64,000 nucleotides of DNA from Arenicellales bacterium (GTDB taxonomy: Bacteria > Pseudomonadota > Gammaproteobacteria > Arenicellales > JBFEOO01), in contig JBFEOO010000005.1 of NCBI GenBank assembly GCA_041550555.1, forward strand, positions 14,017-78,016, written 5' to 3'. The notes below the pieces were generated by a model. That model ran no database searches, was not told where the DNA came from, and saw nothing but the letters and a program-made list of their open reading frames with translations. Numbering within the stretch: position 1 is the first letter of the stretch; every line of letters starts with the position of its first letter. Shown here in pieces: positions 39,557 through 58,577 of this stretch. The position numbers were made by a program, and so were the translations under genes.

Positions 39557-39724
39557 CGGCGCGTTCTCTTGCCGCACCCGGGTCGGGCACGCATCGCTCG
39601 AGGACTCGAGACGACAGGTTACCATCGGCCGGCGTCCGATGCGCGGCGCCACGGCTAACCTGGAGAGGCTTTGCGTGCGCACCGGCCGGCGCTATAGTCG
39701 CCGCCTTTGCGCACCCTTCCCGAC

Positions 39725-40654: not shown

Positions 40655-40822
40655 ATCGGCGCAACGCCAAGGTCGGCGTGCCGCTTGCGGGCACAGCGGG
40701 GCGCCGGCGCCTGGGGCGCGAAAGGAAATTCTTGTGGGGTGCCGTTTTGCGTTACACTCGCGAGCGGTCGACCCGCCAGCGGACGACCGTGGCGGCGTCA
40801 CTATAATAATCCGAGCACTCCG

Positions 40823-42709: not shown

Positions 42710-44640
42710 AGCTGAAGGATTATTGCCTGACTGCGGCGGCCGCGCTCGGTCTCGCCGCCGTATCGCTCGTCGGCGCTCCTGCTCTCGCGGTCGCCGACGA
42801 GATCCCCTCGCTCGTCGAGCGGGTCAAGGCGGGCGAGCTGCCCCCGCTCAGCGAGCGCCTCCCCGAGACGCCCCACGTGACCACGCTCGACGGTTCGGAT
42901 CTGAAACCAGGCGAGTACGGCGGCGAGCTGCGCCTTCTGATGGGCAAATCGCGCGACATTCGCATGATGTCCGTGTACGGCTATGCACGTCTGGTGAGGT
43001 ACAACAAAGAGCTCGAGATCGAGCCCGACATCCTCGAGCGTATCGATGTCGAGGACGACCGCGTGTTCACGATGCACCTGCGCAAGGGACACAAGTGGTC
43101 CGACGGACATCCCTTCACCGCCGAAGACTTTCGTTACTACTGGGAGGACGTTGCCAATAACGAAACGCTGTCGCCGTTCGGTCCGGAGCGGGAGCTGTTC
43201 GTCGACGACGAGCCGCCGAAGGTGGAGTTCCTCGACGAACACACCCTGCGCTACTCCTGGTCCAAGCCCAACCCCTATTTTCTGGTGACGCTGGCCGGCG
43301 CCCTGCCCCTTTACATTTACAGGCCGGCTCACTACCTGAAACAGTTTCACGCCAAGTACACCGACGAGGCCAAGCTGGCCGAGCTCGTCGACGAGTCGGG
43401 CTCGCGCAACTGGGCGGGGCTTCACCACCGCTACGACAAGCTCTATCGCTTCGACAATCCCGATCTGCCGGTTTTGCAGCCGTGGCTGAACACCACGGCG
43501 ATGCCCTCGGAGCGCTTCGTGTTCGTGCGCAACCCGTTCTTCCATCGCGTCGATCAGCTGGGGCGCCAGCTACCCTACATAGACACCGTGGTTCTCAACA
43601 TCGCCAGCTCGTCGCTGGTGCCAGCCAAGACCGGCTCTGGAGAATCCGATCTGCAGGCACGCTACCTGAGACTCGACAACTTTCCCTTTCTCAAGGACGG
43701 CGCGGAGCGCAACGACTACGAGGTCCGCCTGTGGCGGCACGTCTCGGGATCGCAGACGGCTCTGTACCCCAACCTCAACAGCGCCGATCCGGTGTGGCGC
43801 GCGCTGGCCCGCGACCCCCGCTTGCGACGCGCGCTCTCCCTTGCCGTAGACCGCAAGGAGATCAATCAGGTGATTTATTTCGGCTCGGTGATCGAGAGCA
43901 ACAACACGGTGCTTCCCGAAAGCCCCCTGTTCAAGCCGAAGTACCAGAAGAACTTCGCGGAGTTCGACCTGGCCAAGGCCAATGCCCTGCTCGACGAGAT
44001 CGGCCTGACGGAGCGCGACGATCGCGGTGTGCGGCTGATGTCCGATGGCCGGCCGCTGGAGATCGTCGTGCAGACCGCCGGCGAGAGCACAGAGGAGAGC
44101 GACATTCTCGAACTGGTGCACGACAGCTGGCTCAAGGCCGGCATCAAGCTCTACACCAAGCCGTCGCAACGCGAGGTGTTCCGCAATCGCGTCTATGCCG
44201 GAGAGGCGATGATGTCGGTATGGAAAGGCGTCGAAAACGGCATTCCGAACGCCAACATGAGCCCGCGGGAGTTCGCCCCCACATCTCAGGAGCAGCTGCA
44301 GTGGCCGAAGTGGGGGCAGTTCTTCGAGACCAAAGGACAGACCGGCGAAGCCCCCGATATTCCGGAGGGTCAGCGTCTCGCCGAGCTGAACGCCGCCTGG
44401 CGGGAGGCCTCCACCCGCGAGCAGAAGGAGACGATCTGGCACGAAATCCTCGATCTGCACGCGGAGCAGATCTTCAGCATCGGCATCGTGTCCGGGGCCC
44501 GGCAACCGGTCGTGGTCAACAAAAATCTGAACAACGTACCCAAGGAAGGCATCTACAACTGGGAGCCTGGGGCGTATTTCGGCATCTATCGCCCGGACAC
44601 GTTCTGGTTCAGCGAACCCCGTCGGTCGTCGAGCGGCTGA
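42706..44640 (+). CDS. periplasmic substrate-binding protein, family 5 (YejA/peptide-type)
   Basis: 644 aa with a signal peptide (AAAALGLAAVSLVGAPALAVA). It has an ATGA overlap with the ATPase gene. Confidence 0.9.
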   Translation: MKLKDYCLTAAAALGLAAVSLVGAPALAVADEIPSLVERVKAGELPPLSERLPETPHVTTLDGSDLKPGEYGGELRLLMGKSRDIRMMSVYGYARLVRYNKELEIEPDILERIDVEDDRVFTMHLRKGHKWSDGHPFTAEDFRYYWEDVANNETLSPFGPERELFVDDEPPKVEFLDEHTLRYSWSKPNPYFLVTLAGALPLYIYRPAHYLKQFHAKYTDEAKLAELVDESGSRNWAGLHHRYDKLYRFDNPDLPVLQPWLNTTAMPSERFVFVRNPFFHRVDQLGRQLPYIDTVVLNIASSSLVPAKTGSGESDLQARYLRLDNFPFLKDGAERNDYEVRLWRHVSGSQTALYPNLNSADPVWRALARDPRLRRALSLAVDRKEINQVIYFGSVIESNNTVLPESPLFKPKYQKNFAEFDLAKANALLDEIGLTERDDRGVRLMSDGRPLEIVVQTAGESTEESDILELVHDSWLKAGIKLYTKPSQREVFRNRVYAGEAMMSVWKGVENGIPNANMSPREFAPTSQEQLQWPKWGQFFETKGQTGEAPDIPEGQRLAELNAAWREASTREQKETIWHEILDLHAEQIFSIGIVSGARQPVVVNKNLNNVPKEGIYNWEPGAYFGIYRPDTFWFSEPRRSSSG

Positions 44641-44673
44641 GCCGCAGGGCACACGGCGAGGGAGTCCGGCACG

Positions 44674-45678
44674 ATGGACATGTTCAGCTACGTCATTCGG
44701 CGTGTGCTGATGATGATACCGACGCTGCTGGCCATCAGCATCATCGTCTTCGTCATCATTCAATTGCCGCCCGGCGACTACCTCGAGAGCCATATCGCCG
44801 AACTGCAGAGCCAGGGTGAATCCGTCGACGAGGCGAAGATTCGATTCCTTCGGCAGCATTACGGTCTCGACAAACCGCTCTATCAGCAGTACCTGTACTG
44901 GCTGTGGGGCATGCTCCACTGGGACTTCGGCTTTTCGTTCGAGTATGACCTGCCGGTGATGGACGTCGTGGGGGACCGCATGTTCCTCACCGTCATCGTC
45001 TCCTTCGTGACCATCATCTTCACGTGGATCGTCGCCTTCCCGATCGGCGTCTACTCCGCGACGCATCAGTACAGCTGGGGCGATTACGGACTCACCTTTC
45101 TGGGCTTCATCGGTCTTGCCACACCGAACTTTCTACTCGCCCTGGTGATGCTCTACCTCGCCAACGTCTACTTCGGCACCTCCATCGGCGGTCTCATGGA
45201 TCCGTCGTACATCGACCAGCCGTGGAGCTGGGACAAGTTCTTGTCGGTCCTCGAGCACCTGTGGATTCCGGTGGTGGTCATCGGCACCTCCGGCACTGCG
45301 GGCATGATCCGTCGGCTCCGCGCCAACCTGCTCGATGAGCTGCAGAAGCAATACGTGATCACGGGGTTGGCCAAGGGGCTGCCGCGCATGAAGCTCCTGG
45401 TCAAGTACCCGCTGCGCATGGCGCTCAATTTCTTCATTGCTGACATCGGCACGATTCTGCCGAGCATCATCTCCGGCGCCGAGATCGTGGCGGTCGTGCT
45501 GTCATTGCCGACCACGGGTCCCATGCTGCTCAGCGCCTTGCAGAGCCAGGACATGTATCTGGCAGGGTCGTTCCTGATGTTCTTGGCATTCCTCACGGTC
45601 GTCGGCGTGCTGGTGTCCGATCTGCTGCTCGCCGCCCTCGATCCCCGCATTCGGCTCCAGGGAGGCGTGACACGTTGA
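44674..45678 (+). CDS. ABC permease (DppB/YejB-like)
   Basis: 334 aa. The N-terminus MFSYVIRRVLMMIPTLLAISIIVFVIIQLPPGD is typical of this family. Confidence 0.9.
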   Translation: MDMFSYVIRRVLMMIPTLLAISIIVFVIIQLPPGDYLESHIAELQSQGESVDEAKIRFLRQHYGLDKPLYQQYLYWLWGMLHWDFGFSFEYDLPVMDVVGDRMFLTVIVSFVTIIFTWIVAFPIGVYSATHQYSWGDYGLTFLGFIGLATPNFLLALVMLYLANVYFGTSIGGLMDPSYIDQPWSWDKFLSVLEHLWIPVVVIGTSGTAGMIRRLRANLLDELQKQYVITGLAKGLPRMKLLVKYPLRMALNFFIADIGTILPSIISGAEIVAVVLSLPTTGPMLLSALQSQDMYLAGSFLMFLAFLTVVGVLVSDLLLAALDPRIRLQGGVTR

Positions 45679-46844
45679 GCACTACGACACCCAAGGCGCC
45701 CCTCGAGCATTTCGTCTCGACGAAGCCCTTCGATCCGCACTCGATCGAGGCGCTGACCCGGGAGCAGGAGCGCTACTACTTCGCGTCGCAGTGGCAGCTG
45801 ATGTGGTGGAAGCTCAAGCACCATCGGCTGGCCGTGGTGTCCGGCCTGGTGCTGCTGGTGATGTACGGCGCCGCCATGCTGAGCGAAGTCGTAGCGCCTT
45901 ACGAGCTGCAGTCCCGCTTCACCGACTACATTTACGCACCGCCTCAACGTCTGCATCTGTTCCACGAGGGACAGTTCATCGGACCGTTCGTGTACGGCTT
46001 CGAGTCGACCTTCGACTTCGAGACCATGAAACGCAAGTACGCCGCGAACACCGCGGACGTGCAGCCGCTGCGGTTCTTCTGCCAAGGAGATCCCTACAAG
46101 TTCTGGGGAGCGTGGCCGGCGCGCTTTCATCTCGTTTGCCCGGCCGAGGACGGCACCTTCTTCCTGCTCGGCACCGATCGCCTCGGCCGCGACATGTTCT
46201 CACGCATCATTCACGGCTCGCGCATCTCGCTCACCATCGGCCTGGTCGGCATCGTCATCAGTTTTGCCCTGGGCGTCGTCATCGGGGGTATCGCCGGCTA
46301 CTACGGTGGGCTGGTCGACACCGTGGTTCAGCGAGTGATCGAGATTCTGCGCTCGTTCCCGGAGCTGCCGCTGTGGATGGCGCTCTCGGCCGTGCTCCCC
46401 GTCAATTGGAGCCCGCTTCTGGTTTTCTTCGGGATTACCGTGATTCTCGCGCTGCTCGACTGGACGGGGCTCGCGCGCGCGGTGCGCTCCAAGCTGCTCG
46501 CGCTCAGGGAAGAGGACTACTGCACGGCGGCGCAGCTGATGGGAGCGCGCCCCCGGCGAATCATCGGCCGCCACCTGCTGCCGGGGTTCATGAGCCACAT
46601 GATCGCCTCGGCCACGCTGTCGATTCCGGCGATGATTCTCGGCGAGACGGCACTGAGCTTTCTTGGGCTCGGCCTGCGACCTCCGATCACCAGCTGGGGT
46701 GTGCTGCTCAACGAGGCTCAGAACATCAACGTCGTTGCGGTCTACCCGTGGCTGATGCTCCCGGTGGTTCCGGTGATTATCGCCATCCTGGCGTTCAACT
46801 TCTTCGGCGACGGGCTGCGCGACGCCGCCGACCCCTACAAGTAA
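45675..46844 (+). CDS. ABC permease (DppC/YejE-like)
   Basis: 389 aa. It has a TTG start overlapping the upstream stop, and contains LLGTDRLGRDMFSRIIHGSRISL. Confidence 0.9.
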   Translation: MSTTTPKAPLEHFVSTKPFDPHSIEALTREQERYYFASQWQLMWWKLKHHRLAVVSGLVLLVMYGAAMLSEVVAPYELQSRFTDYIYAPPQRLHLFHEGQFIGPFVYGFESTFDFETMKRKYAANTADVQPLRFFCQGDPYKFWGAWPARFHLVCPAEDGTFFLLGTDRLGRDMFSRIIHGSRISLTIGLVGIVISFALGVVIGGIAGYYGGLVDTVVQRVIEILRSFPELPLWMALSAVLPVNWSPLLVFFGITVILALLDWTGLARAVRSKLLALREEDYCTAAQLMGARPRRIIGRHLLPGFMSHMIASATLSIPAMILGETALSFLGLGLRPPITSWGVLLNEAQNINVVAVYPWLMLPVVPVIIAILAFNFFGDGLRDAADPYK

Positions 46845-46851
46845 CGCCCCA

Positions 46852-49527
46852 CTACTCCACTTCCAGCAAGCGCTCGAAGCTCGAGCCCGCCCGCGTGACG
46901 TCCTCGCGCGGTCCATGCTCCGCAACCTGGCCCTTTTCGACGACCATAATCGTGTCGAAGCGATTGGCCAGCTCCGGCCTGCCCAGCACCCACAGCAGTC
47001 CCCGCCCCTGCATGTAGCCGATGAGCTGGTCGACCATCCTGTTCTCGGCCGATGGATCGAGACCACCCGTCGCATCGTTGATGATGAGCATATCGGGATC
47101 CTTGATCAGGCAGCGGCCGATGGCGATCTTCTGGCGCTGCGCCAGCGACAGCCGGGCGCCGGCAATGCCGACCTCGTAATCGAGTCCGGCGCGGATGATG
47201 TCCTCGCGCAGATCGAGGGTGTCCACCGTCTCGCGAATGAGCTCGCCTACCCGCGCCTGCGCCTGACCCTGACCGTAGGCCAGCCTGCCAAACAGGATGT
47301 TGTCCTGAATCGAGATCGTCGAGTTGAACCCCTCCGGATCGAAGAAGCGAACCGAGTCGTTGTCCTTCCCGAGCGCTGCGCCCAACGCCTCGCGGGCCTT
47401 GAGCAGCCGCGCCTGGAAGGCATCGTCGATGAGGCCCAGTCGGTGTCGTGCCGGGATGAGCTTGAAGGGCAGCGACAACAACATGTCGCGATCCTCACTG
47501 CTGAGCGCCTCGATGTCATCGGCGCTGGTACGCTTGAGCAGGCTGTGAAACGCCGGCAGGTCGTCCGAGCTGATGAAGCTGAACTGCTCGAAAAGCTCGC
47601 TGTCGGCCGGAACGTCCGCGAACAGATCGAGCATGATCTCGGCCAGCCGCCGGCCCAACTTGATGAAATCGGTGTACAGGTCCGTATCCTTGAGCACCTG
47701 CACCACCTGCGCGTTGGTGGCCAATCGCTCGACATGGAACGAGGGATCGATCGGCGTACCAAAGAGGATGTTCTCGGCAACGGTCATGTTCGTGTTGTAC
47801 TTGTCGCTGTCGAACAGCTCGACCAGCGATGCCATCTTCGGGTCCCGCACCCGGTCGCGCAGCGCCGCGCGCGCCTCCAGTATCCGTGCCGCGAGCTCCG
47901 GCCGGGCGTCGGGATCGACCGTCCCGTACAGCCCCAGGTTGTAGACGTCCTCTTCCATGCCGACCACCTTGAGGATCTTCAGGGACTTGGCGACGAGGCC
48001 CTCGAGATCGTCGACGCCCGCCGACGCGAAATCGATCCAGTTGGCGTTGACGTCGGCATCGGAGTTGGCGGAAGCCCGCGCCTCCTTGACGTAGTGGTCG
48101 CGCTGTTTGGACGCCGCGCCTTCGTAAGCGGGCGAATCCATAGCCCGATGCTTGAGGCCGTAGAAGAGGTTGTCACCCACCGAGCCCGAGAACATGTGCG
48201 CATTCTGGCCAACATAGGCGATGCGTCGACCCGTGATCGCCTCGGGCAGATCCGAGAGGTTCTTCTCGTCGACGGTGATGCGGCCGGCCGTGGGTATCAT
48301 CAGACGCCCGGCCAGCATGGCCAGCTCGCCCTTGCCGCTGCCGGCCAGCCCGACGATGCCGGTGCTGCTGCGCACGTCGCAGCGGAAATTCATGCCGTCG
48401 ATGCTCTTGACGATGTCGTCCTCGCTGTAGACGAGATTGGAGGCGACGAGAGTCCCCGACAGCGGCTCGACGCTTTCCGGGGTCTCATCGAGCAGACGCG
48501 ACGCGAACATGTTCTCCGGCTGGAACTGCTCGATGACCTGCTGGTATTTCACGCGCACGTCTTCGGAGATCTGGTAGAACTTGAGCAACTCCTTCCACGG
48601 ATCGGAGATATCCTTGTACGCCGCCAGCACCGCCACCAGCGCACCGAGAGAGAGACGGCCGTTGATGACAAAATAGCCGCCGATCGAAAAGAAGAAAAAC
48701 GGCGTGACCTGGGCCAGGAAGTTGTTGATAAACTTGATGAAGAATTTTCTCTTGTAGACCTCGTAGCGAATCTCGAAGATCGTGCCGAGCCGGCTGGCGA
48801 CGTCTGCGCGCTCGTACTGGCTCGTGTCCTGCGCATGGATCTCCGTGATACCCGATATGGATTCGCCGATGCGGTCGGCCACCTTGCGCGCCGTTCGCAC
48901 GCGCTCCTTATTGAGCGCGTTCACCCGCATCTGCAGCTTGGGAATGAGCCACATCTGCGGGGGATACAGCGCAACCGCCGCCAGCCCGAGCCAGAAGCTC
49001 TGTGAGAAGATGAAGAACATGTAGGTGATCAGCAGCCCTCCCTGAAAGGCCGGCAGCGAGTACGATTCGCCGATGAAGCCCCCGAGCGGCTCGGTTTCCG
49101 CCATGATCATGGGGATGATTTCGCCCTGGGAGGTGCGCTTGAAGTGCGGCAGCGGGAAGCGCAGGATGCGCGCGTAGAGGTCGTAACGCAGCCGGCGTAG
49201 CATGCGCTCACCGAGCACGCCGCGGTAGACGTTGAGGTAGTACTTGAAGCCGCCGTTGAGGGTGATCAGCCCGAGAAACAAAAAGCTCAGTACCAGCAGG
49301 TAGTCGATCTGGTCGACTTCAAAGCCGAGGATCGCCTCGGGGATGTCCACCCCGCCGATGGCCTTGTTGATGATCGTCTTGGGAATGTCGAGCGAGATAT
49401 AGACGAAAGGCATCGATATCACGGTCAACAACAGAAGAAATAGCTGATCCTTCAGGGTGTACTTCAGGATATAGCGATATATGTTTGGTTCGAGCTTTTC
49501 GTCTTTCATCGTTCCCTGGCCCGCCAC
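46852..49527 (-). CDS. ABC-exporter-like protein: 6-TM domain fused to an expanded, motif-degenerate nucleotide-binding domain
   Basis: 891 aa. The TMD spans about aa 20-330. The NBD motifs are Walker A GLAGSGKG, Q-loop VGQN, signature LSLAQ, Walker B MLIINDA and D-loop GGLD. About 350 aa separate the Q-loop from the signature. Confidence 0.85.
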   Translation of the reverse strand: MAGQGTMKDEKLEPNIYRYILKYTLKDQLFLLLLTVISMPFVYISLDIPKTIINKAIGGVDIPEAILGFEVDQIDYLLVLSFLFLGLITLNGGFKYYLNVYRGVLGERMLRRLRYDLYARILRFPLPHFKRTSQGEIIPMIMAETEPLGGFIGESYSLPAFQGGLLITYMFFIFSQSFWLGLAAVALYPPQMWLIPKLQMRVNALNKERVRTARKVADRIGESISGITEIHAQDTSQYERADVASRLGTIFEIRYEVYKRKFFIKFINNFLAQVTPFFFFSIGGYFVINGRLSLGALVAVLAAYKDISDPWKELLKFYQISEDVRVKYQQVIEQFQPENMFASRLLDETPESVEPLSGTLVASNLVYSEDDIVKSIDGMNFRCDVRSSTGIVGLAGSGKGELAMLAGRLMIPTAGRITVDEKNLSDLPEAITGRRIAYVGQNAHMFSGSVGDNLFYGLKHRAMDSPAYEGAASKQRDHYVKEARASANSDADVNANWIDFASAGVDDLEGLVAKSLKILKVVGMEEDVYNLGLYGTVDPDARPELAARILEARAALRDRVRDPKMASLVELFDSDKYNTNMTVAENILFGTPIDPSFHVERLATNAQVVQVLKDTDLYTDFIKLGRRLAEIMLDLFADVPADSELFEQFSFISSDDLPAFHSLLKRTSADDIEALSSEDRDMLLSLPFKLIPARHRLGLIDDAFQARLLKAREALGAALGKDNDSVRFFDPEGFNSTISIQDNILFGRLAYGQGQAQARVGELIRETVDTLDLREDIIRAGLDYEVGIAGARLSLAQRQKIAIGRCLIKDPDMLIINDATGGLDPSAENRMVDQLIGYMQGRGLLWVLGRPELANRFDTIMVVEKGQVAEHGPREDVTRAGSSFERLLEVE

Positions 49528-49681
49528 CGCATCCGCCGTGTCAGCTCCACTCGCGAGCGACCTCCGCCAGCGAGTATACTGCCTACCCGAAGCGGCGTCT
49601 CGCGTCTGATGAAACTCGCCGTCTCACGAGCGGAGGCAGACGCGGCCGCCAACCCGCCCGAGCCCGGTTCCGGGCGCGCCT

Positions 49682-50917
49682 ATGTCAAGACATCTGGCCA
49701 TCGTTGTCAAAGGGTATCCGCGACTGTCGGAAACCTTCATCGCCCAGGAGATACAGGCCCTCGAGGAACGCGGTCTCACGGCGACGATCATCTCGCTTCG
49801 GCATCCGAGCGATCGCGACGTGCACCCGGTGCATCGCGCCGTCCGTGCGCCGGTCCGCTACTTGCCGGAATACCTCCACGACGAGCCGCGGCGCGTGCTC
49901 GAGGGGTGGCGTCGGGCCCGCCGTCTTCCCGGCTACCGGCGCGCGCGAGCAGTCTGGCTCAAGGACCTGCGCCGCGACCCGACGCGCAACCGGATTCGGC
50001 GCTTCGGTCAGGCGCTCGTGCTGGCGGCCGAGCTGCAGCCGACGGTGCAGGGGCTGCATGCGCATTTTCTCCACACGCCGGCATCGGTGGCCCGTTACGC
50101 GGCGATGCTCACGGGGCTGCCTTGGTCATGCTCGGCCCACGCCAAGGACATCTGGACGACGCCGGAGTGGGAGAAGCGCGAGAAGCTGGCCGACTGTGCC
50201 TTCCTGGTCACGTGTGCGCGTGCCAATGCCGATCATCTGGGCGCACTGTCCACGCGACCGCAAACCATCGGCCTAGTCTACCACGGCGTAGACTTCCATC
50301 GGTTCCCGGCGCCCGACGACGGCCGCTCCGACGCCGATGGCAGGGACCCTGACCACCCCGTGCGGCTGCTCTCCGTCGGGCGCGCGGTGCCCAAGAAGGG
50401 CTACGGCGATCTGCTGGATGCCCTGGCGGCGCTGCCCCCAACGGTCTCCTGGCGGCTCGATCACTTCGGCGGCGGAGCGTTGCTCGACGAGCTGCGGCGT
50501 CGGGCGCAGCGGCTGGGCCTGGCCGAGCGCATCACCTGGCACGGACCGGCCACCCAGCAACGGCTGCTCGATGCCTACCGGTGCGCCGATCTGTTCGTGC
50601 TGGCATCACGCATCGCCGCCGACGGCGACCGCGATGGCTTACCCAACGTCCTGATGGAGGCGCAGAGCCAGAAATTGGTCTGCGTCGCAACCAACGTCTC
50701 GGGCGTGCCGGAGCTGGTGCACGACGGCGTGACCGGCGTGCTCGTGCCCCCGGCGGACAGCCGGGCGTTGGCCCGCGCCCTCGCGGCGCTCATCCGCGAC
50801 CCCGGGCGGCGCGCCGCGCTGGGCCACGCAGGGTTCCGCCGCGTGCGCGCTGAATTCTCGATGGCCGATGGCATCGACGCCCTGGCCGTCCGTCTCGGGC
50901 TGACGCCGCCGACGTGA
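49682..50917 (+). CDS. glycosyltransferase family 4 (GT-B, WcaL-like)
   Basis: 411 aa. It starts HLAIVVKGYPRLSETFIAQEI, and the C-terminal EX7E-type region reads PNVLMEAQSQKLVCVATNVSGVPELV. Confidence 0.85.
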   Translation: MSRHLAIVVKGYPRLSETFIAQEIQALEERGLTATIISLRHPSDRDVHPVHRAVRAPVRYLPEYLHDEPRRVLEGWRRARRLPGYRRARAVWLKDLRRDPTRNRIRRFGQALVLAAELQPTVQGLHAHFLHTPASVARYAAMLTGLPWSCSAHAKDIWTTPEWEKREKLADCAFLVTCARANADHLGALSTRPQTIGLVYHGVDFHRFPAPDDGRSDADGRDPDHPVRLLSVGRAVPKKGYGDLLDALAALPPTVSWRLDHFGGGALLDELRRRAQRLGLAERITWHGPATQQRLLDAYRCADLFVLASRIAADGDRDGLPNVLMEAQSQKLVCVATNVSGVPELVHDGVTGVLVPPADSRALARALAALIRDPGRRAALGHAGFRRVRAEFSMADGIDALAVRLGLTPPT

Positions 50918-52071
50918 ACATCGCCTTCTACGCACCACTCAAGCCGCCGCTGCATCCGAACCCCTCGGGCGACCGGCTGATGGCGCGACTGCTGATGGGC
51001 GCGCTGGCGTCGGCCGGCCACCGCGTCACGCTGGCCGCCCGCCTGCGCACCTGGGACGGCGCCGGGGACACCGTCCGGCAGCGACGCCTGCAACAGCTTG
51101 GCGCGCGCATCGCCGAGCGACTGATCAAGCGCTTTCGCTCGGCCGCCGCCGAGGCGCGGCCGGATATCTGGTTCACCTACCACCTGTACCACAAGGCCCC
51201 GGACTGGATAGGGCCGCTCGTCGCCGATGCGCTCGCCATCCCCTATGTCATCGCGGAGGCCTCCTTCGCCCCCAAGCAGGACGGCGGACGCTGGGCGTCG
51301 GGCCACCGCCAGGCGCGCGCCGCAATTGCGCGCGCCGATGCCGTTGTCGGCCTGAACCGCGCCGACAGCGACTGCCTGCTGCCCCTGCTCGCGGAGCCCG
51401 AGCGGCTCGCTCTGCTGCCCCCGTTTCTCGACACCGCAGCATGCGACCGCCTCGGCGGGGCGCTGACGCGCCGGCAGGCAGCAGCGCGTCTGGGGCTCTC
51501 CCCGGACGTGCCCTGGCTGATTGCCACGGCGCGCATGCGCGCCGGCGACAAGCTGCGCTCGTTCGTCGAGCTCGCCGACGCCCTGCGAGAGATCGTCGAC
51601 AGCGACTGGCGGCTCGTCGTGGTCGGCGATGGCGCGGCCCGGCCGCAGGTGGCGGCGGCCTTCGCCGCGCTTCCGGCCGGTCGCGTCTGCTTCGCCGGCC
51701 AACTCTCGCACGCCGACCTGTTTCCGCTGCTTCGGCAGTGCGATCTCTACGTGTGGCCGGCGGTCAACGAGGCCTACGGCATGGCGCTCATGGAAGCCCA
51801 GGCGTGCGGCTTGCCGGTCGTCGCCGGGTGCACCGGCGGCGTACCGGACGTCGTGGAGCATGACACGTCGGGGCTGCTGGTACCGGTCCACGATACCAGC
51901 CGTTTCGCCGGGGCGGTGCGCGCACTGCTCGACGATCCGCGGCGCCGCGCGCGGCTGGGCCGCCAGGCGCGCGCGCGGATCCGCGGCCGCCACGACATAC
52001 ACGCCGCCGCGGCGCGCCTCGATACCATCCTGAGCGATGCCCGGCGCGTTCACGCCGCGAGGTGCCCGTGA
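50914..52071 (+). CDS. glycosyltransferase family 4 (GT-B)
   Basis: 385 aa with a GTG start overlapping the upstream stop (GTGA). It contains GMALMEAQACGLPVVAGCTGGVPDVV. Confidence 0.85.
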   Translation: MNIAFYAPLKPPLHPNPSGDRLMARLLMGALASAGHRVTLAARLRTWDGAGDTVRQRRLQQLGARIAERLIKRFRSAAAEARPDIWFTYHLYHKAPDWIGPLVADALAIPYVIAEASFAPKQDGGRWASGHRQARAAIARADAVVGLNRADSDCLLPLLAEPERLALLPPFLDTAACDRLGGALTRRQAAARLGLSPDVPWLIATARMRAGDKLRSFVELADALREIVDSDWRLVVVGDGAARPQVAAAFAALPAGRVCFAGQLSHADLFPLLRQCDLYVWPAVNEAYGMALMEAQACGLPVVAGCTGGVPDVVEHDTSGLLVPVHDTSRFAGAVRALLDDPRRRARLGRQARARIRGRHDIHAAAARLDTILSDARRVHAARCP

Positions 52072-52114
52072 CGACGGCTGCGCTGCGCCACTCCCCGGCC
52101 GCCACGGACTGGCG

Positions 52115-52741
52115 GTGAGCTGGATCGCATTCATCCGCCACGGCCCGACGGCCTGGAACGCCGAGGGGCGCATCCAGGGCCGTACCGACGTTCCGTTGAG
52201 CCCCGAGGGACGCGACGAGGTAGCGCGTTGGCGGCTGCCGGACGAGCTCAGCGCGGCGCGCTGCCGGACGAGTCCGCTCGGCCGAGCGCGCGAGACAGCA
52301 GCGCTGCTCGGCTTACACGAGCCCCGGCCCGACGCCGCGTTGATCGAGATGGACTGGGGCACGTGGGAAGGTGCCGTGCTCGGTGAGCTCCGCGTCGCAC
52401 TCGGCGAAGCGATGGCGGCTAACGAGCAGCGCGGCCTCGACTTTCAACCGCCCGGCGGCGAGAGCCCGCGCGCCGTGCGGCGGCGCCTGCGGCGATTCGT
52501 CGCCGCGCGCGCGGCGTCGGACCAGCCGCTGGTGGCCGTTACCCACAAGGGGGTGATTCGGGCGGCATTGAGCCTGGCGACGGCATGGGACATGCGCGCA
52601 AAGCCGCCGTTCAAGCTGCGCTGGGATTGCGCGCACGTCTTCGACATGCAGAACGACGGCACGTTGCTGCTGCGGCGTTTGAACGTGTCGCTGGTGGCTG
52701 GCGGCCGGCGACGCGCGCCGCGCGGGCGCTCGCGGAGCTGA
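52115..52741 (+). CDS. histidine phosphatase family protein (PGM/CobC-like)
   Basis: The catalytic RHG motif is in IAFIRHGPTAWNAEGRIQGRTDVPLS, with a later VTHKGVIRA. The start is uncertain: GTG at 52115 is chosen, and the longest ORF begins at 52037. Confidence 0.8.
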   Translation: MSWIAFIRHGPTAWNAEGRIQGRTDVPLSPEGRDEVARWRLPDELSAARCRTSPLGRARETAALLGLHEPRPDAALIEMDWGTWEGAVLGELRVALGEAMAANEQRGLDFQPPGGESPRAVRRRLRRFVAARAASDQPLVAVTHKGVIRAALSLATAWDMRAKPPFKLRWDCAHVFDMQNDGTLLLRRLNVSLVAGGRRRAPRGRSRS

Positions 52742-52783
52742 CTCTTTCGCTCCACTTTCGGAGACGGCGTTGAAACGCGGCGG

Positions 52784-53950
52784 TCAGCGGCAGGCGAGCC
52801 GGCGAATCAGCTGGGCGCTCCTGGCGGCACCGCCGAGATCGAGGGTCATCGCGGGCCGGGGACGCGCGAGAGCGCGCTCCACCGCTCTCGCGAGGGCGTC
52901 TGCGGACAGCGTGCCCTCGTCGGCGCGCTCGGCCAGCCCCAGGGCCTCGAGACGCTGCGCGCGCAGCAGCTGCTCGGTCTCACCGGGACCCACGAAGGGA
53001 ATCAGCACGGCGCGGGTATCCGCCGCCAGCAGATCCATGACGGTGTTGTAGCCCGCCTGGGATATCGACACGGCGCAGGCCGCGAGCAGCTGTCGAAACT
53101 CGCCGCGCGAGCGGTTGCGCTCGACGATCACCCCGGCGGGCGCCGACTCGCCGAGCGACTGAAACTCCTCCCGGGCGACGTTCGGTCCGACGAGCAAGCG
53201 CCAGCGGGCCTGCCGCAGCGCGCAGCGCGGCCGAGCCGCCAGCGCGCACCGGTACAGGGCACCGCTGGCCGCACCGCCACCGGCGGAGACGATCACCTCA
53301 TCGGCGCCAAGCGCCGGCGTCACCACCGGCTGCGGGGTCGGCTCGACGACGAATCCCGTGTAGACGAGCTTGTCCGCGATCTGTACCGCCTCCGGAAACG
53401 TTTCCTCGAGGCGCGCGAAAGCCGGATCACCGTGTACCAGCACGCGGTCGAAACGCGACGCAACCAGAGCGACGATCTCCGCCCGCCGCGCCGGGTCACG
53501 CTTGATCTGCAGAATGTCGCGAACGGAGCAGGCGACGAGCGGCCGGGGTGTCATCTGCCAGACCGCGTCGAGCAATGGCAGCAGCTCGAAGCGCATCTGG
53601 CGCCGGCCGAACGGGAACATCTCGATGATCAGCACGTCCGGCCGACCGTCGCGCACCACCTCGAGCAGCCGCGCGCGGCGCGACGCGGCGTAGGCGTCGT
53701 CGACGACCTCCCCAGCGCCGGTCAGCAGGCGCGAGAAGTCCGCGCCGTCGCTGCGGATCGGCGGCAGCTGCGTTACCGCTGCGCCCCCGAAGTCGATGTC
53801 GGGCACGGCGACGCCGCCGCAGAGGACTTCGACCTTGTGGCAGGCCGCCGCGAGCGCGCGCGCCAGCACGGCGGCGCGCTGCAGATGACCGACACCGAGC
53901 AGGTGCTGCACATAGAGCATCACCCGCGTCCGCGGAGTGCGGTCGATCAC
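52784..53950 (-). CDS. predicted GT-B glycosyltransferase (GT28/COG4671-like), paralog A
   Basis: 388 aa with an N-terminal LYVQHLLGVGHLQRAAVLARAL and a C-terminal SISQAGYNTVMDLL. It is paralogous to 54146-55411. Confidence 0.7.
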   Translation of the reverse strand: MIDRTPRTRVMLYVQHLLGVGHLQRAAVLARALAAACHKVEVLCGGVAVPDIDFGGAAVTQLPPIRSDGADFSRLLTGAGEVVDDAYAASRRARLLEVVRDGRPDVLIIEMFPFGRRQMRFELLPLLDAVWQMTPRPLVACSVRDILQIKRDPARRAEIVALVASRFDRVLVHGDPAFARLEETFPEAVQIADKLVYTGFVVEPTPQPVVTPALGADEVIVSAGGGAASGALYRCALAARPRCALRQARWRLLVGPNVAREEFQSLGESAPAGVIVERNRSRGEFRQLLAACAVSISQAGYNTVMDLLAADTRAVLIPFVGPGETEQLLRAQRLEALGLAERADEGTLSADALARAVERALARPRPAMTLDLGGAARSAQLIRRLACR

Positions 53951-54145
53951 GAGCGCAGGAGCCCGCCCAGCCCCACTGCGGGGAACAAGGCGCTAGCGCG
54001 CACGGCTCAGCGAGCCATGGGCGAGATGGGCGCGGCGTGCTCGCCGGGTCGGCGTCGTCGCCGGGAGCCGCGCCGCGCAACCGCTGCCCGCCGCACCGCC
54101 GGCGCCGCAAGTGTGGCGAGGATCACACCCCGCGCTCATTGCCCG

Positions 54146-55411
54146 TCACGACAACGCGGTGGCCGAGCTCGGCAGAGATGTCTGTCCGCTGACGCGCGAG
54201 TAGACACGATGATCAATCGCCGGCAGGCCGTCGAGCAGACCGCCGACACGCGCTGCGGAAGGACGCGACTGCGACGGCAGGCTGCGCAGCGCGCGCGCCA
54301 TGACGCCGGCGTCGCGGCCACCGTCGGCGCGCAGCATGCGCACCAGCCCGAGCGCCTCGCCGCGCCGGGCGCGCAGCAGCTGCTCCTGGCGAGGCGTCTC
54401 GCGGGGCACGAGAATGGCCGGCTTGTCGAACGAGATGATCTCGCAGAAGGTGTTGTAGCCACCCATGGCGACCACCCCCGCGGCGTTCGCCACCAGGCTC
54501 TCCATATGGCTGTCGAAGGTGATGGCCTGCACGGCGGGCAGCGCCGCGACGCGGGCGCGGAACTCCTCCTGCAGACCGGCGGCGAGGAAGGGCCCGAAGA
54601 CCACGAGCGCGGGGTACGGAATGTCATCGTGCTGCTCGTAGGCGCGCAGCACCCAGTCGATCACCAGCTCACCGTCGCCACCGCCTCCGGGCGTCACCAG
54701 GAGATACGGCTCCGCGATGCTCACCTCCGGATGCGGCAGCGCTTCGCGTGGGGCGTCGCGCCGCAGATAGCCCGTAAAATGGGTCTTGGCCAGCACCGCA
54801 GCGGGCGCGTCCACGTCGCGCAGCGGGTCGCCCATCTGCGCGATACCGTACACCCAGATCTCGTCGTACAGATCCCGCAGCGCGGGCATGACCTCCTTGT
54901 CCCGCCACTCGCGGCGCAACAGCCGCGGCTCGTCCATGACGTCGCGCAGCCCGAGCACGTTGGTCGTGCCGCGCGACTTGAGCAGCGCGAGCGTTTCGGC
55001 AACCTCTCCCCGCAGGCCCAGCGGCTCCTTGTCGACCAAAAACAGGTGAGGCGCGAATGTCTCGGCCGTGTGCCGAATGATGGAGGTGCGCATGGCCAGC
55101 GTCTGATCCAGGTCGATGTGCAATGCGAGTGACGTGTACTCGCCGTTGTGCAGCTTGATCACGCCGGGAACGCGCACGAAGTCCACGCGCGCCTTGAAAT
55201 CGAAACTGCCTATGATCGGGGAACCGGAGAGAATGAGAACGCTCAATCCTTTGTAGACGTCGACGAGATGGTGAGCAATGGTCCGGCACCGGCGCAGATG
55301 GCCTAGACCAAAGCTGTCATGGCTGTAGACCAGCACCCGCGTGCCGTCCAGGCGATCGATCGCTCCCACCTTAGCCCGCCTCGCGTCCTCGTCAGCGCTC
55401 AGGGTACACAC
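54146..55411 (-). CDS. predicted GT-B glycosyltransferase (GT28/COG4671-like), paralog B
   Basis: 421 aa with VYSHDSFGLGHLRRCRTIAHHL and VVAMGGYNTFCEII. Confidence 0.7.
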   Translation of the reverse strand: MCTLSADEDARRAKVGAIDRLDGTRVLVYSHDSFGLGHLRRCRTIAHHLVDVYKGLSVLILSGSPIIGSFDFKARVDFVRVPGVIKLHNGEYTSLALHIDLDQTLAMRTSIIRHTAETFAPHLFLVDKEPLGLRGEVAETLALLKSRGTTNVLGLRDVMDEPRLLRREWRDKEVMPALRDLYDEIWVYGIAQMGDPLRDVDAPAAVLAKTHFTGYLRRDAPREALPHPEVSIAEPYLLVTPGGGGDGELVIDWVLRAYEQHDDIPYPALVVFGPFLAAGLQEEFRARVAALPAVQAITFDSHMESLVANAAGVVAMGGYNTFCEIISFDKPAILVPRETPRQEQLLRARRGEALGLVRMLRADGGRDAGVMARALRSLPSQSRPSAARVGGLLDGLPAIDHRVYSRVSGQTSLPSSATALS

Positions 55412-55620
55412 TACGCCGGCGGCGGGGCAACCGCCGCTTTGCCCGTGCGTCGCGGGTCACCTCTGGCTCCATTTGTGGGTTACATTGCGGGTCGCCCTGG
55501 CGACAGCGGACCGGCACGTCCCGTCGGGGGCGCGGCGGCCCCGCGGGGAACGTGAAACGTCGGCAACCGGCCGCGCACGGGCCGGCCGGCGGCCGCTCAA
55601 CCGCGAGGAGGCGCAACATC

Positions 55621-57015
55621 GTGCGTTTGGCAGATCTCGTCCGCAGCCGAAAGCGCCGGGTCGGCGGCCAGCCCGATTACCAACGGCTGCCCGCGCGTGT
55701 GCGCGAGCGCATTACCCGTCAGCAGCAGGACAGCGAGATCCTGATCGGCTGGATCCAGCTCGGCGTGCTGCTCACGTTCACCGCGCTCTATGCCGTCTCA
55801 CCGAAGACGTTTCCCGAGCAGGCCCGCTTCGAGCCGGTGCCGTGGGCGCTGGGCGCCTATTTCACCTTCACCATCGTACGGCTGGTGCTCGCCTATCGGC
55901 GCGCCCTGCCGTACTGGATGCTCGTTGTGTCGGTCATCGCCGACATGACCCTCTTGCTGGGCCTGATATGGAGCTTTCACTTGCAGTACGAGCAGCCGCC
56001 GGCGTTCTACCTCAAGGCTCCGACGTTGCTCTACGTGTTCATCTTCATCGCCCTTCGCGCGCTGCGCTTCGAGGTCGGCTTCGTCGTCCTGGCCGACATC
56101 GCCGCCTCGTTGGGATGGATGTTTCTCGCCCTGTATGCCATCGACTTCAGCGTCGAAGACATGCCGGTCACGCGCGACTACATCGAGTACATGACGTCGA
56201 GCAAGGTGCTGATCGGTGCAGAGTTCGACAAGATCATCTCCGTGCTGATGGTGACGGCCATCCTGGCCGTGGCCATCGCCCGCGCCCATCGCCTGCTGGT
56301 GCGGTCCGTGGTGGAGGCCTCCGCCGCGCACGACCTCTCCCGCTTCGTCCCCGATGAGATCGTCGAGCGAATTACCCGCGCCGACCAACCGGCGCAGGCC
56401 GGGCAGGGCGAGACCGGGGAAGCCACCATTCTGTTCGTCGATCTCGAGGGGTTCACCGCCATCGGCGAATCACTGACGCCGGAAGCGCTGGTCACCACCC
56501 TCAACGACTACTTCGCCGCCGTGGCCGAGCCCATCCGCCGCCACCACGGCGTCATCTGCCAGTTCCAGGGCGACGCCATACTCGCCAGCTTCAACATGCC
56601 GAAGCTGCAGCCCGATCACGCCGCTCACGCCATCGACACCGCCGTCGAGATACAGCGGCTGCTGGCGCGGCGTACGTTCGGTGAAGGCATTCGGCTCAAA
56701 GCGCGCGTCGGGATTGCCACGGGCGAGGTAGTGGGCGGTCTGGTCGGCACACCGGAGAGGCTGGGCTACACCGTGCACGGCGACGACGTCAACCTCGCGG
56801 CACGGCTCGAGAAGGCGAACAAAGAGCACGGCACCCGCGTGCTGATCTCGGAGCGCACTCAGGCGTTGGCCGCCTCGGAGCGCTTCTCGTTCCGCCCGAT
56901 CGGCACTCTCACGGTGCGCGGTCGCAGGGGACCCGTGGGCATCTACACGCTCGCTGCGGGGGACGAGAACGGGCCCGCGGGAGCAGCATCGCTCAACAAC
57001 GGCTCAGCCCGCTGA
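55621..57015 (+). CDS. membrane-bound class III adenylate/guanylate cyclase
   Basis: About 6 TM helices are followed by a catalytic domain (ATILFVDLEGFTAIGESL, FQGDAILASFN, GIATGEVVGGLVG, TVHGDDVNLAARLE). The GTG at 55621 is preceded by GAGGAGG, and the longest ORF begins at 55552. Confidence 0.85.
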   Translation: MRLADLVRSRKRRVGGQPDYQRLPARVRERITRQQQDSEILIGWIQLGVLLTFTALYAVSPKTFPEQARFEPVPWALGAYFTFTIVRLVLAYRRALPYWMLVVSVIADMTLLLGLIWSFHLQYEQPPAFYLKAPTLLYVFIFIALRALRFEVGFVVLADIAASLGWMFLALYAIDFSVEDMPVTRDYIEYMTSSKVLIGAEFDKIISVLMVTAILAVAIARAHRLLVRSVVEASAAHDLSRFVPDEIVERITRADQPAQAGQGETGEATILFVDLEGFTAIGESLTPEALVTTLNDYFAAVAEPIRRHHGVICQFQGDAILASFNMPKLQPDHAAHAIDTAVEIQRLLARRTFGEGIRLKARVGIATGEVVGGLVGTPERLGYTVHGDDVNLAARLEKANKEHGTRVLISERTQALAASERFSFRPIGTLTVRGRRGPVGIYTLAAGDENGPAGAASLNNGSAR

Positions 57016-57046: not shown

Positions 57047-57688
57047 TCAGACCACGTCTCGCAGACCTCGTAACGACGCCAGCAGTCGCGCGATGTTCTC
57101 TCGCGCCTGGGTTTCGTAGCGCCGATAGAAGACCTCCGTGGCGTAGATGCGGCTGCGCTCGAGCAGCGACTGCAGAAAGCGGCAGTGGTTCGACGCGAAC
57201 GCGCCGTCGGACAGATGCGGGTACTCCGCGCGCACCTTTTCGCTGTCGCGCTGGAAATCTGGCCAAGCGAGCCCAAAGCTCGCTAGATCCACGTCCGCGA
57301 CGTACCGCTCGTCATCGCTACGCGGTCGGCGGTTGCCGTGATCGGTGATCATGATGAGTCGCTGGACGTCGGCCACGAACTGCGGCGCCAGGTCGTCGTC
57401 GGCGTGGTCGCTGAACAGCTCGGCGCTGCGGTGCTCGTTGTCGCTCGCCTTGGGATCGTAGACGGCGTCGTGGTACCAGAGCGCCATCTCCGCGGCGTCG
57501 TCGTTGGGCACCGCGCCGCGCACGCGATCGAGCTCGGTCAGGCAATGCTCGATGTGCAGCGCGGTGTGGTAGCGACGATGGCCCTCGCCGTAGCGCTCGA
57601 CCAGCTCGCGAAACAGCGCCTGCGGTTCGCCACCGCCCTCGCCACGTCGGTGGCGTGTCCACAGCTCGACGAATCGCTCCCGAATCAT
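57047..57688 (-). CDS. HD-superfamily metal-dependent phosphohydrolase (COG4339-like)
   Basis: It contains YHTALHIEHCL and ALWYHDAVYDP (His/Asp metal ligands). The start is taken at MIRERF, and an upstream ATG at 57790 is possible. Confidence 0.65.
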   Translation of the reverse strand: MIRERFVELWTRHRRGEGGGEPQALFRELVERYGEGHRRYHTALHIEHCLTELDRVRGAVPNDDAAEMALWYHDAVYDPKASDNEHRSAELFSDHADDDLAPQFVADVQRLIMITDHGNRRPRSDDERYVADVDLASFGLAWPDFQRDSEKVRAEYPHLSDGAFASNHCRFLQSLLERSRIYATEVFYRRYETQARENIARLLASLRGLRDVV

Positions 57689-58106
57689 GCGCACGGCGGC
57701 CTCGGGAGCAGTGCCGCTCTGCCGCTCGTGGCGGGCATCCGCGCGGCCGTCTCCGTCACCCGCGACCGCTGCACGCTGCTGTTTCCGCACGAGCAGGCGC
57801 CCGCGGCGTGGCGCTGCGACACACCAGGCAGCGGGGCGTTCGTGCAGAGCGGGTCAGCGGCAAAGCGGGCACGAACGAGTCGTCAAGAAAACGAAGTCAG
57901 CACCGAACTCGAGCCGGAAATCGGTTGTGACCCCGTTTTGCCCAGCCTGCCGGTGCGGCGCGGCCGAGCGTTGTCGGCGGTGTCGAGTTCGACGCGGCAG
58001 TGTCCCCAGCCGAGAGATGACGTGCGCCGCGGCCGCACCGCAATGCGGGGCGCAATGGCCGGTGCCCACCCGTGAGTCCGGGATCCGGCCTCCCTTGCCG
58101 GGAAGA

Positions 58107-58577
58107 TCACTCGCCCTCGTAATGCTGCAGGCGGGACTGGAGCGCCTCGACCTGGGCGTGGGAGCGGGCAAGCTTGTCGCTCAGCTGGCGCATGACGTCG
58201 AGGGCGATATCGCCGTTCTCGGAGACCAGCTTGAGAAAGGCGTCATTCGAGATGCGCAGTGTCGTCACCTCACCTTTCGCCCGCAGCGTTGCCGATCGCG
58301 GTGCGTTGCTCAACACCGCCATCTCGCCGATCAGCTCATTGCGACCTCGCGTCACCACCGGCACCAGCTCACCGCCCTCGGCCTCGGCGAGAATCTCGAC
58401 CTCGCCGTCCATGATCACGTAGGCCGAATCGGAGGGATCGTTGACGTGGAACAGCACTTCGCCGTCCTGGAAGGTGACCGATTCGCTTGTAAAGGCAAGC
58501 AGCTTCAGCTTCGAAGCATCGAGCTTCGCGAACATCGGCACCTGTTTAAGCTGCTCAGCCTCTTGGAAGACGTCCAA
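58107..58577 (-). CDS. stand-alone cyclic-nucleotide-binding domain protein
   Basis: 156 aa. The CNB beta-barrel has the phosphate-binding cassette IGEMAVLSNAPRSATLRA, followed by a C-terminal helical tail. Confidence 0.85.
   Translation of the reverse strand: MDVFQEAEQLKQVPMFAKLDASKLKLLAFTSESVTFQDGEVLFHVNDPSDSAYVIMDGEVEILAEAEGGELVPVVTRGRNELIGEMAVLSNAPRSATLRAKGEVTTLRISNDAFLKLVSENGDIALDVMRQLSDKLARSHAQVEALQSRLQHYEGE

Follow-up and report, generated by a model that had tools for sequence, protein, structure and literature searches.

We have analysed a stretch of 64,000 nt from contig JBFEOO010000005.1 of an Arenicellales bacterium (the window), in which a first-pass annotation had marked out six genes at 46852-55411: a degenerate ABC-like membrane protein, two glycosyltransferases of family GT4 (GT4a and GT4b), a histidine phosphatase and two GT28-like transferases (GT28A and GT28B). 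Open reading frame (ORF) and Pfam searches agree with the six genes and their domains, and the coordinates match exactly. Because the G+C content of the window is 61-72%, its six-frame ORF lists are crowded with shadow ORFs; the six ORFs noted first are those backed by domain searches. A single conserved functional module, of ~13 genes in the window and up to ~14 elsewhere, has these six at its centre. The boundary drawn around them was too narrow, as the unit also holds an Opp/Gsi-like importer, which had been treated as lying outside, and a cyclic-nucleotide module that includes a cyclic-nucleotide-binding protein (CNB).

Gene content and conservation

A scan for GT28A with one genome per GTDB species showed that at least 598 species genomes encode it. 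We took 80 GT28A loci with 10-kb flanks and three loci from exact-protein look-ups; the window proteins were mapped onto these 83 loci by tblastn and later with family hidden Markov models (HMMs). Annotated plasmid regions of Rhizobium, Sinorhizobium and Azospirillum were added, giving ~87 loci in total (L-numbers below are locus ids from this survey). The 40 loci with at least 7 kb upstream and at least 9 kb downstream of GT28A are called flank-complete, and the 56 loci covering GT28A, GT4a and GT28B are called spanning; linkage between the genes for the CNB and the ABC-like protein was counted over the 51 evaluable loci having the latter. The Pfam survey of the window neighbourhood covers positions 35989-61840. 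The genes of the module in the window are as follows.

40685-42709, + strand: OppF, a fused double ABC ATPase of the Opp/Gsi/Yej type (Pfam, two ABC_tran and oligo_HPY)
42706-44640, + strand: periplasmic binding protein (OppA), 644 aa (Pfam SBP_bac_5, E 8e-57); syntenic elsewhere
44674-45678, + strand: importer permease 1 (Pfam BPD_transp_1); 65-82% identical across classes
45675-46844, + strand: importer permease 2 (Pfam OppC_N and BPD_transp_1); syntenic elsewhere
46852-49527, - strand: ABC-exporter-fold protein with a degenerate nucleotide-binding domain (NBD), 891 aa (Pfam ABC_membrane and a split ABC_tran)
49682-50917, + strand: GT4a, 411 aa, core GT4 transferase (Pfam, NCBIfam)
50914-52071, + strand: GT4b, 385 aa, accessory GT4 transferase (Pfam); in 48 of 56 spanning loci
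52037-52741, + strand: histidine phosphatase, branch 1, accessory (Pfam His_Phos_1, E 3e-38); in 41 of 56 spanning loci
52784-53950, - strand: GT28B, core GT-B transferase and paralogue of GT28A (Pfam Glyco_tran_28_C above the gathering score)
54146-55411, - strand: GT28A, core GT-B transferase, the most conserved member of the cluster (Pfam Glyco_tran_28_C above the gathering score)
55552-57015, + strand: membrane-anchored class III nucleotidyl cyclase (Pfam Guanylate_cyc, E 3e-26)
57047-57790, - strand: hyp24, a conserved hypothetical protein with H..HD..D motifs
58107-58577, - strand: CNB, a stand-alone cyclic-nucleotide-binding protein, 156 aa (Pfam cNMP_binding PF00027, E 7e-20)

The first-pass annotation had proposed that its six genes belong together, and they are indeed conserved together: among the flank-complete loci GT4a is present in 97%, GT28B in 95%, OppF in 85%, the ABC-like gene in 80%, the CNB and GT4b genes in 72% each and a further gene, X, in 65%. 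GT4b and the phosphatase occur together in 38 spanning loci, GT4b alone in 10, the phosphatase alone in three and neither in five. The core consists of GT28A, GT4a, GT28B, the ABC-like protein, the CNB and the importer; GT4b and the histidine phosphatase are frequent accessories outside it. As dozens of genomes, drawn from three classes of proteobacteria, show these genes in synteny, their grouping is far beyond chance, and the gene set is one evolutionary unit. GT28A has >8000 relatives, found in metagenome-assembled genomes (MAGs) and genomes that carry alpha-, beta- or gammaproteobacterial labels; among the best 120 listed, identity to it is 61-96% (mostly 61-67%), and in the 80 best loci it is ~60-69%. 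The cluster occurs in three forms (< and > mark gene direction, HisP the phosphatase and Cyc the cyclase).

Long form, in most Alphaproteobacteria (Azospirillum, Inquilinus, Marivibrio, Dongiaceae, Stellaceae and others) and some Burkholderiales: <Z <CNB <ABC, GT28A> GT4a> GT4b> HisP> GT28B> X> Y> OppF> OppA> OppB> OppC>
Window form, in L001, L003, L005, L032, L048 and L075 (Arenicellales and other gammaproteobacterial MAGs, together with one 96%-identical relative): OppFABC> <ABC GT4a> GT4b> HisP> <GT28B <GT28A Cyc> <hyp24 <CNB
Short form, in Methyloligellaceae (L002), L007, L080, Rhizobium etli pA and Sinorhizobium meliloti pSymB: OppFABC> GT28A> GT4a> GT28B> ... ABC, then CNB

Besides GT4b and the phosphatase, neither of which occurs in the short-form clusters of Rhizobium, Sinorhizobium and Methyloligellaceae, the lineage-variable additions are methyltransferase-like proteins, the cyclase and putative phosphodiesterases. 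Three genes common elsewhere, named X, Y and Z in the canonical form, are absent from the whole window by HMM or tblastn search; the methyltransferase-like gene found after GT28B at other loci is missing from it as well. Gene X encodes a family of ~255 aa, situated between GT28B and the importer genes (L010 15350-16147, L024 15330-16097 and ~45 other loci), that has no signal peptide and has no match in Pfam, NCBIfam or PDB; its invariant motifs (WWRDDD, HG..H.N, PPWNR and H.D.IDW) resemble those of CE4 deacetylases, which at this level of likeness is a guess.

The usual polysaccharide machinery is missing, as had been stated before: Pfam finds no Wzx/Wzy, Wza/Wzc, priming phosphoglycosyltransferase or nucleotide-sugar gene at 35989-61840. 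An outer-membrane or periplasmic export partner is likewise found in no form of the cluster. Rfam, promoter and terminator scans gave nothing informative. The window cluster is flanked by stable housekeeping synteny (FtsK, LolA, XthA) and by no defence island. Complete clusters of the proteobacterial type are also found in MAGs labelled Acidimicrobiia and Verrucomicrobiia (L023, L055), and two further loci are labelled Enterobacteriaceae (L030, L057); these four are probably mis-binned contigs and not true occurrences outside the usual lineages.

The ABC-like protein and the cyclic-nucleotide module

The gene for the ABC-like protein is divergent from GT4a, with ~155-170 bp between them, and its true start is probably the ATG at 49509. 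Both this orientation and the degeneracy of the protein, reported earlier, hold on closer analysis. The ABC_tran match is split between aa 377-485 and aa 739-889. In an alignment of the NBD with ABCB4 and ~50 family members, the catalytic motifs are degenerate in the window and across the family: Walker A reads GSGKGE, the Ser/Thr being lost and the P-loop being variable across the family; Walker B reads IINDA in the window, with NEA in place of DE as the family consensus; in the window, Gly stands where the H-loop has His; and the signature motif reads LSLAQ. Within the protein, conservation is highest in the transmembrane domain. We rejected a catalytically competent MsbA-like ABC exporter, for which GxxGxGK[ST] (Walker A), hhhhDE (Walker B), the H-loop His and LSGGQ are expected, on these motifs, although the transmembrane domain and fold are of that kind. 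The type IV glycan and lipid ABC exporters (MsbA, PglK, NdvA/ChvA, HepA) are similar to the ABC-like protein in transmembrane fold, architecture and glycan gene context. The differences are that it scores far under the cut-offs, that it has replacements at the Ser/Thr of Walker A, the Asp of Walker B, the catalytic Glu and the His of the H-loop, and that it carries a duplicated helical insert of 275 aa along with a CNB partner or fusion.

The insert (residues 465-735, ~275 residues, mostly helical) is confidently predicted in an AlphaFold2 model with a mean predicted local distance difference test (pLDDT) score of 81, and in this model it lies within the NBD, between the Q-loop and the signature motif. 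In a Foldseek search all matches of the model are ordinary type IV exporters, ~570 residues long (PCAT1 core, TM287/288, Atm1, TmrAB and MsbA), and none of them carries the insert. Residues 565-625 and 722-781 of the protein align with an HHalign probability of 97%. The insert, seen in no solved ABC structure, is, judging from such internal alignment, a product of duplication of the segment comprising the Q-loop and the helical subdomain. By inspection, NBD residues ~436-790 hold three strand-loop-'[ST][IV]x[DE]N[IL]xFG' helix units, at 449, 582 and 738.

In S. meliloti 1021 (pSymB 825153-850298, L086) the ABC-like gene, at locus positions 16565-19253, is split between two frames near 16975; in strain Ak57 (L087) it maps as two ORFs with no CDS listed (PLSDB omits pseudogenes). 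The gene is probably a pseudogene in S. meliloti. In L003, a near-identical relative of the window, it is called as two genes (products of 439 and 447 aa), perhaps through an assembly error.

The CNB is a hallmark of the module. In 39 of the 51 evaluable loci its gene is adjacent or fused to the ABC-like gene (immediately downstream in 35, fused in four); in six it lies elsewhere in the locus and in six it was not found. The immediate downstream position is that of the long form, and the fusions, in L002, L007, L080 and L081, place the domain at the C-terminus of the ABC-like protein (residues ~900-1040). The window CNB matches PF00027 with 71.2 bits (cut-off 27.5), which makes it a member of the CNB-domain family, and its phosphate-binding cassette, GEMAVLSNAPRSATLRA, is intact, with the required Glu and Arg. 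Since it aligns with CRP residues 16-139 only, it is without the helix-turn-helix, DNA-binding domain. The TIGR03896 'bacteriocin-type transport-associated' model matches it with E 2e-8 and 34 bits (cut-off 161). Proteins of this family have two CNB domains and accompany peptidase-containing bacteriocin exporters. They are alike in being CNB-domain proteins tied by genome context to ABC exporters, whereas here a single CNB domain is found beside a glycosyltransferase cluster.

The cyclase gene adjoins GT28A in nine further loci, in the window's order or a related one (L001, L003, L004, L005, L006, L032, L040, L048 and L075, of which L006 repeats L001). In R. etli and S. meliloti a cyclase lies at the cluster edge, and the ABC-like gene is followed by one for a CNB. 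Where cyclases normally have Lys/Asp for ATP or Glu/Cys for GTP, the window cyclase has, by eye, Gln (FQGD) and Thr (YTVHGD), and its nucleotide specificity may be unusual. The hyp24 gene always follows the CNB gene in loci of the window type (nine, the window and eight others). Its family, of 210-250 aa with the motifs YHT..H, WFHD..Y.P and D.DL..FG, has no match in Pfam, NCBIfam or PDB, so that any assignment rests on motifs; hyp24 is possibly an HD-type phosphohydrolase and, given its neighbours, possibly one that acts as a cyclic-nucleotide phosphodiesterase. In R. etli a Metallophos phosphoesterase, a candidate phosphodiesterase, is encoded after the CNB gene.

Transferases, phosphatase and importer

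The two GT4 genes are joined by a GTGA stop/start overlap, already noted in the first reading and seen again in the sequence. Their products match Glycos_transf_1 with 103.2 bits (GT4a) and 101.2 bits (GT4b) against a cut-off of 26.4 and have the two-domain GT-B layout, which places both in GT4; the N-terminal Glyco_transf_4 matches are weak (24 and 23 bits, under the cut-off of 28.5), and the likeness between the two proteins is confined to the C-terminal domain. GT4a aligns end to end with the EpsE and WcaL models at 154 bits (cut-off 400) and 79 bits (cut-off 538), respectively; as these NCBIfam equivalog cut-offs are not reached, its assignment as an EpsE/WcaL-type exopolysaccharide transferase was rejected. 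The nearest solved structures to GT4b are PimB', a protein similar to sucrose-phosphate synthase (SPS), MshA, BshA and PglA.

GT28A and GT28B are paralogous over their full length (26% identity, E 6e-15), in agreement with the earlier description of a paralogous pair. Homologues of GT28A have ~406 aa, which puts its true start probably at ~55369, later than the start of the listed ORF; an exact-sequence look-up of the window GT28A gave no match, probably through a differing called start. Both proteins share with MurG/GT28 enzymes and with GT1 small-molecule transferases the GT-B fold and the C-terminal nucleotide-sugar-binding domain PF04101, the latter being the only part detected; the N-terminal GT28 domain PF03033 was undetected by Pfam in either. 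Identity as MurG was rejected, since the equivalog model TIGR01133 gives 21.2 and 15.8 bits for the two proteins against a cut-off of 250. The AlphaFold2 model of GT28A (pLDDT 82) has a generic GT1/GT28 GT-B fold, and Foldseek relates it with template-modelling (TM) scores of only 0.5-0.6 to GT1 UDP-glycosyltransferases, natural-product glycosyltransferases, MurG, MshA and UDP-GlcNAc 2-epimerase; a profile search of PDB sequences finds no relative at E <0.2. IMG calls homologues 'predicted glycosyltransferase'. On pA of R. etli CIAT 652 (L084, 11965-14454) the GT28A homologue is annotated 'redA: membrane-anchored protein' and the GT4a homologue 'redB: glycosyltransferase'; a search for literature on these names found no paper explaining them. 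The transferases of the cluster have no signal peptide or transmembrane segment and are soluble proteins with the GT-B fold.

Such transferases beside an exporter-like protein could make a lipid-linked glycan or a glycolipid. The MurG-like and WcaL/EpsE-like enzymes would then add sugars to a membrane lipid, either diacylglycerol or a polyprenyl-phosphate-linked sugar whose priming enzyme is encoded elsewhere; the ABC-like protein would be a flippase of the MsbA/PglK type, and the importer would be just a conserved neighbour or a recycler of head groups. EpsE and WcaL enzymes act on undecaprenyl-linked acceptors, and the end-to-end alignment of GT4a with their models counts for this explanation. 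So do the C-terminal domain common to GT28 proteins and MurG, the type IV exporter fold of the ABC-like protein, its best NCBIfam matches (MsbA, HepA and PglK-type exporters) and the fact that a translocator free of hydrolysis fits lipid scrambling. However, every one of these family matches is far under its cut-off, PF03033 is undetected, the cluster has no priming transferase, ligase or polymerase, and the near-universal linkage to a binding-protein importer would be left unexplained. We regard the glycolipid explanation as possible, though rather unlikely.

The phosphatase belongs to the cluster, as was supposed, since it lies inside it in 41 of 56 spanning loci. It is a member of branch 1 of the histidine phosphatase superfamily (His_Phos_1, 131.8 bits, cut-off 21.7), and its translation shows the motifs FIRHGPTAWN (RHG) and VTHKGVIRA (second catalytic His). 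The uncertainty expressed about its start persists: with the ATG at 52037 the gene shares 35 nt with GT4b, and with the GTG at 52115 its product has 208 aa, close to the 189-200 aa of the homologues. The nearest protein is a small alpha-ribazole-phosphate phosphatase of Thermus (E 4e-19); GpgP (4pz9) is matched with E 1.5e-7.

The first-pass annotation had compared the GT4-phosphatase pair with two-step syntheses through a phosphorylated intermediate, in particular with the one that uses the glucosyl-3-phosphoglycerate phosphatase (GpgP) of mycobacteria. GpgP is a histidine-phosphatase-superfamily enzyme, and such syntheses (glucosylglycerate by GpgS/GpgP, sucrose by SPS and its phosphatase SPP, mycothiol by MshA and a phosphatase) do have in common with the cluster a retaining GT-B transferase beside a phosphatase, MshA, BshA and SPS-like proteins being among the nearest solved relatives of GT4b. 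The analogy with GpgS/GpgP has nothing specific in its favour: no gene of the cluster has a GT81 domain, and the phosphatase is nearer to the CobC type than to GpgP. The cluster further differs from these pathways in the addition of two GT1/GT28-like transferases, the ABC-like protein and the importer. GT4b and the phosphatase mostly co-occur (38 loci), but in 13 loci one is present without the other; as both are accessory, separable and missing from the short form, a two-step synthesis by this pair cannot be the core chemistry.

A different account takes the phosphatase as a CobC-type housekeeping enzyme and the cyclase and CNB as a Pycsar-like anti-phage module that merely happens to lie beside the transferases. 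The best family match of the phosphatase is indeed alpha-ribazole phosphatase, and PADLOC matches the cyclase and the CNB to its PycC and Pycsar effector models. These PADLOC matches are at the level of generic domains, though, and for the cyclase weaker than the Pfam match; no TIR or transmembrane effector domain is present, and together with the housekeeping synteny around the cluster this led us to reject a Pycsar system. CobC identity was rejected as well: TIGR03162 gives 102.4 bits against 162.9, Rfam finds no cobalamin riboswitch, and the neighbours in 41 loci are glycosyltransferases; in dozens of genomes the phosphatase gene stands between those for GT4b and GT28B. Positions 35989-61840 showed no cob gene, a cob context not having been searched for systematically. 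With the CNB fused to the ABC-like protein in four genomes in addition, this account is largely refuted by synteny and very improbable.

The importer genes (40685-46844) lie upstream of the gene for the ABC-like protein; their order is Gsi-like, with the ATPase first, then the binding protein and then the two permeases. The best NCBIfam match of OppF is GsiA, under its cut-off, and the binding protein has a clear Sec-type signal peptide. A gene for a glycerophosphodiester phosphodiesterase (GDPD, 39707-40654, + strand) stops 30 bp short of the importer ATPase gene, which has the same orientation; none of the other ~87 loci has it beside the cluster, so it is probably a local neighbour. A PAS-GGDEF-EAL protein (cyclic di-GMP turnover) is encoded ~2 kb upstream of the importer operon, at 35989-38583 (+ strand).

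The importer, of the peptide/opine/nickel family, suggests yet another use of the module, in which a peptide or small molecule taken up in the Opp/Gsi manner would be glycosylated in the cytoplasm and released through the ABC-like protein, for detoxification or signal processing. An importer and an exporter-like protein are always linked here with cytoplasmic transferases, and the GT1/GT28-like fold is typical of small-molecule glycosyltransferases. Yet no gene for a precursor peptide or a peptide-modifying enzyme was seen, and three or four transferases are many for a detoxifying tag; we find such processing of an imported substrate quite improbable.

Comparison with known loci and a proposed role

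No characterised locus matches the cluster, which accords with the earlier remark that it was not recognised as a named pathway, and no paper, curated family or solved structure was found that explains the module. Searches for COG4671, for cyclic-nucleotide-binding ABC proteins with glycosyltransferases and for Clr with oligopeptides found no relevant literature. Nor is the cluster the same locus as nodP2-smb21248, the polysaccharide cluster of S. meliloti regulated by Clr/cAMP. The msbA2 operon of S. meliloti (SMb21188-SMb21191) is alike in joining glycosyltransferases to an MsbA-like exporter without Wzx/Wzy or Wza/Wzc, and the polysaccharide it makes is not known (PMC3687685, PMC12239276). 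It is located on pSymB too, the replicon of the S. meliloti copy of the cluster, but at ~938 kb (PMC3687685) and not at 830-845 kb, and it is not reported to have a linked importer or a CNB partner. As a counterpart it was rejected, since tblastn of the cluster proteins against pSymB 935-947 kb shows generic NBD similarity only and no homologue of GT28A, GT28B, GT4a or GT4b. The msbA2 operon is an analogue in logic and not a relative.

The rhizobial loci bear on the question of whether the product is a polymer. A UDP-sugar 6-dehydrogenase and a PF14099 polysaccharide lyase flank the short form (L087 548-4640, L084 2589-4088), the lyase in S. meliloti. The cluster could accordingly serve a non-classical exopolysaccharide or capsule-like polymer, exported via the ABC-like protein, of which the importer would take up the breakdown oligosaccharides. 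The dehydrogenase in the S. meliloti and R. etli loci and the position of the S. meliloti lyase, directly upstream of the importer genes, speak for such a polymer, and the msbA2 operon gives a precedent for transferases with an MsbA-like exporter (PMC3687685, PMC12239276). Among the 87 loci, however, lyase and dehydrogenase are confined to Rhizobiaceae (apart from a weaker dehydrogenase match, of 40% identity, in L065) and the window has neither; no processive GT2 synthase and no export partner beyond the inner membrane is present in the cluster, and a degenerate NBD would give no energy for polymer export. For the module as a whole we therefore consider a polymer distinctly unlikely. The genes for synthesis of the glucuronan (poly-beta-1,4-GlcA) of S. 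meliloti were stated to be unknown in 2023 (PMC10180729), and the S. meliloti locus is a speculative candidate for them; comparison of its lyase with PDB gave no sequence match and no tie to glucuronan lyase.

With moderate confidence we propose that the module serves the cyclic-nucleotide-controlled synthesis, translocation and re-uptake of a small glycoconjugate. The cytoplasmic transferases, two from anomer-inverting families and one or two from a retaining family, would assemble two to four sugars into a short glycan or glycoside, starting from an acceptor for which the cluster has no gene. Where GT4b and the phosphatase occur, one step would pass through a phosphorylated intermediate that is later dephosphorylated. 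The ABC-like protein would move the product across the inner membrane or into its outer leaflet. Because the NBD has lost the residues for hydrolysis and has a CNB partner or fusion, this translocation would be gated by cAMP or cGMP from the neighbouring cyclase and not driven by ATP turnover. In the absence of an outer-membrane export component, the product would stay in the periplasm, remain membrane-bound or be diffusible by its small size, and the binding protein and importer would recapture it or a derivative. The first-pass annotation had likewise favoured a small glycoside or glycolipid over an exopolysaccharide; that preference remains an inference, and in S. meliloti, where the locus has a dehydrogenase and a lyase, the product may be a polymer.

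Several points weigh against our proposal. No product, substrate or phenotype is on record for the cluster. Donor and acceptor specificities are not readable from the transferase sequences, and no family match assigns either. The loss of catalytic residues in the ABC-like protein rests on alignment, and ATP binding, or hydrolysis by unusual residues, may persist. The role of the importer is a matter of conjecture, with supply of the acceptor as an alternative to re-uptake. GT4b and the phosphatase are not strictly coupled, with 10 loci holding only the former and three only the latter. The frameshift in the ABC-like gene of S. meliloti 1021, and probably of Ak57, means that the system is dispensable in at least one host; the dehydrogenase of S. 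meliloti and R. etli and the lyase of S. meliloti also hint at a uronic-acid polymer there. Finally, as the window has no X, Y or methyltransferase-like Z, its chemistry may differ from that of the canonical form, and with the methyltransferase-like gene after GT28B missing too, the product may be a simpler version.

A cluster of glycosyltransferases with an ABC transporter is of a kind already known; the unusual part is a degenerate ABC-fold protein coupled to cyclic-nucleotide sensing. A more specific suggestion, unlikely as we judge it, is that an ABC-fold protein without ATP hydrolysis acts with the CNB as a cyclic-nucleotide-gated translocator, or release valve, for a cytoplasmic glycoside and is paired with high-affinity re-uptake. 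If true, this would be a 'release and recapture' circuit under second-messenger control, without a described counterpart among ABC proteins and widespread in Proteobacteria, including rhizobia and Azospirillum.

The fusions in four genomes physically link cAMP/cGMP signalling to an ABC-fold protein and to glycan synthesis. If confirmed, this link would represent a new output of bacterial cyclic mononucleotide signalling and a new functional class of degenerate ABC proteins. At least ~600 species-level genomes of three proteobacterial classes have the module, among them tractable plant-associated hosts (Azospirillum, S. meliloti with pSymB, and R. etli and R. leguminosarum with their plasmids), and its product could prove to be a new glycoconjugate, periplasmic or secreted, with a bearing on how plants and microbes interact.

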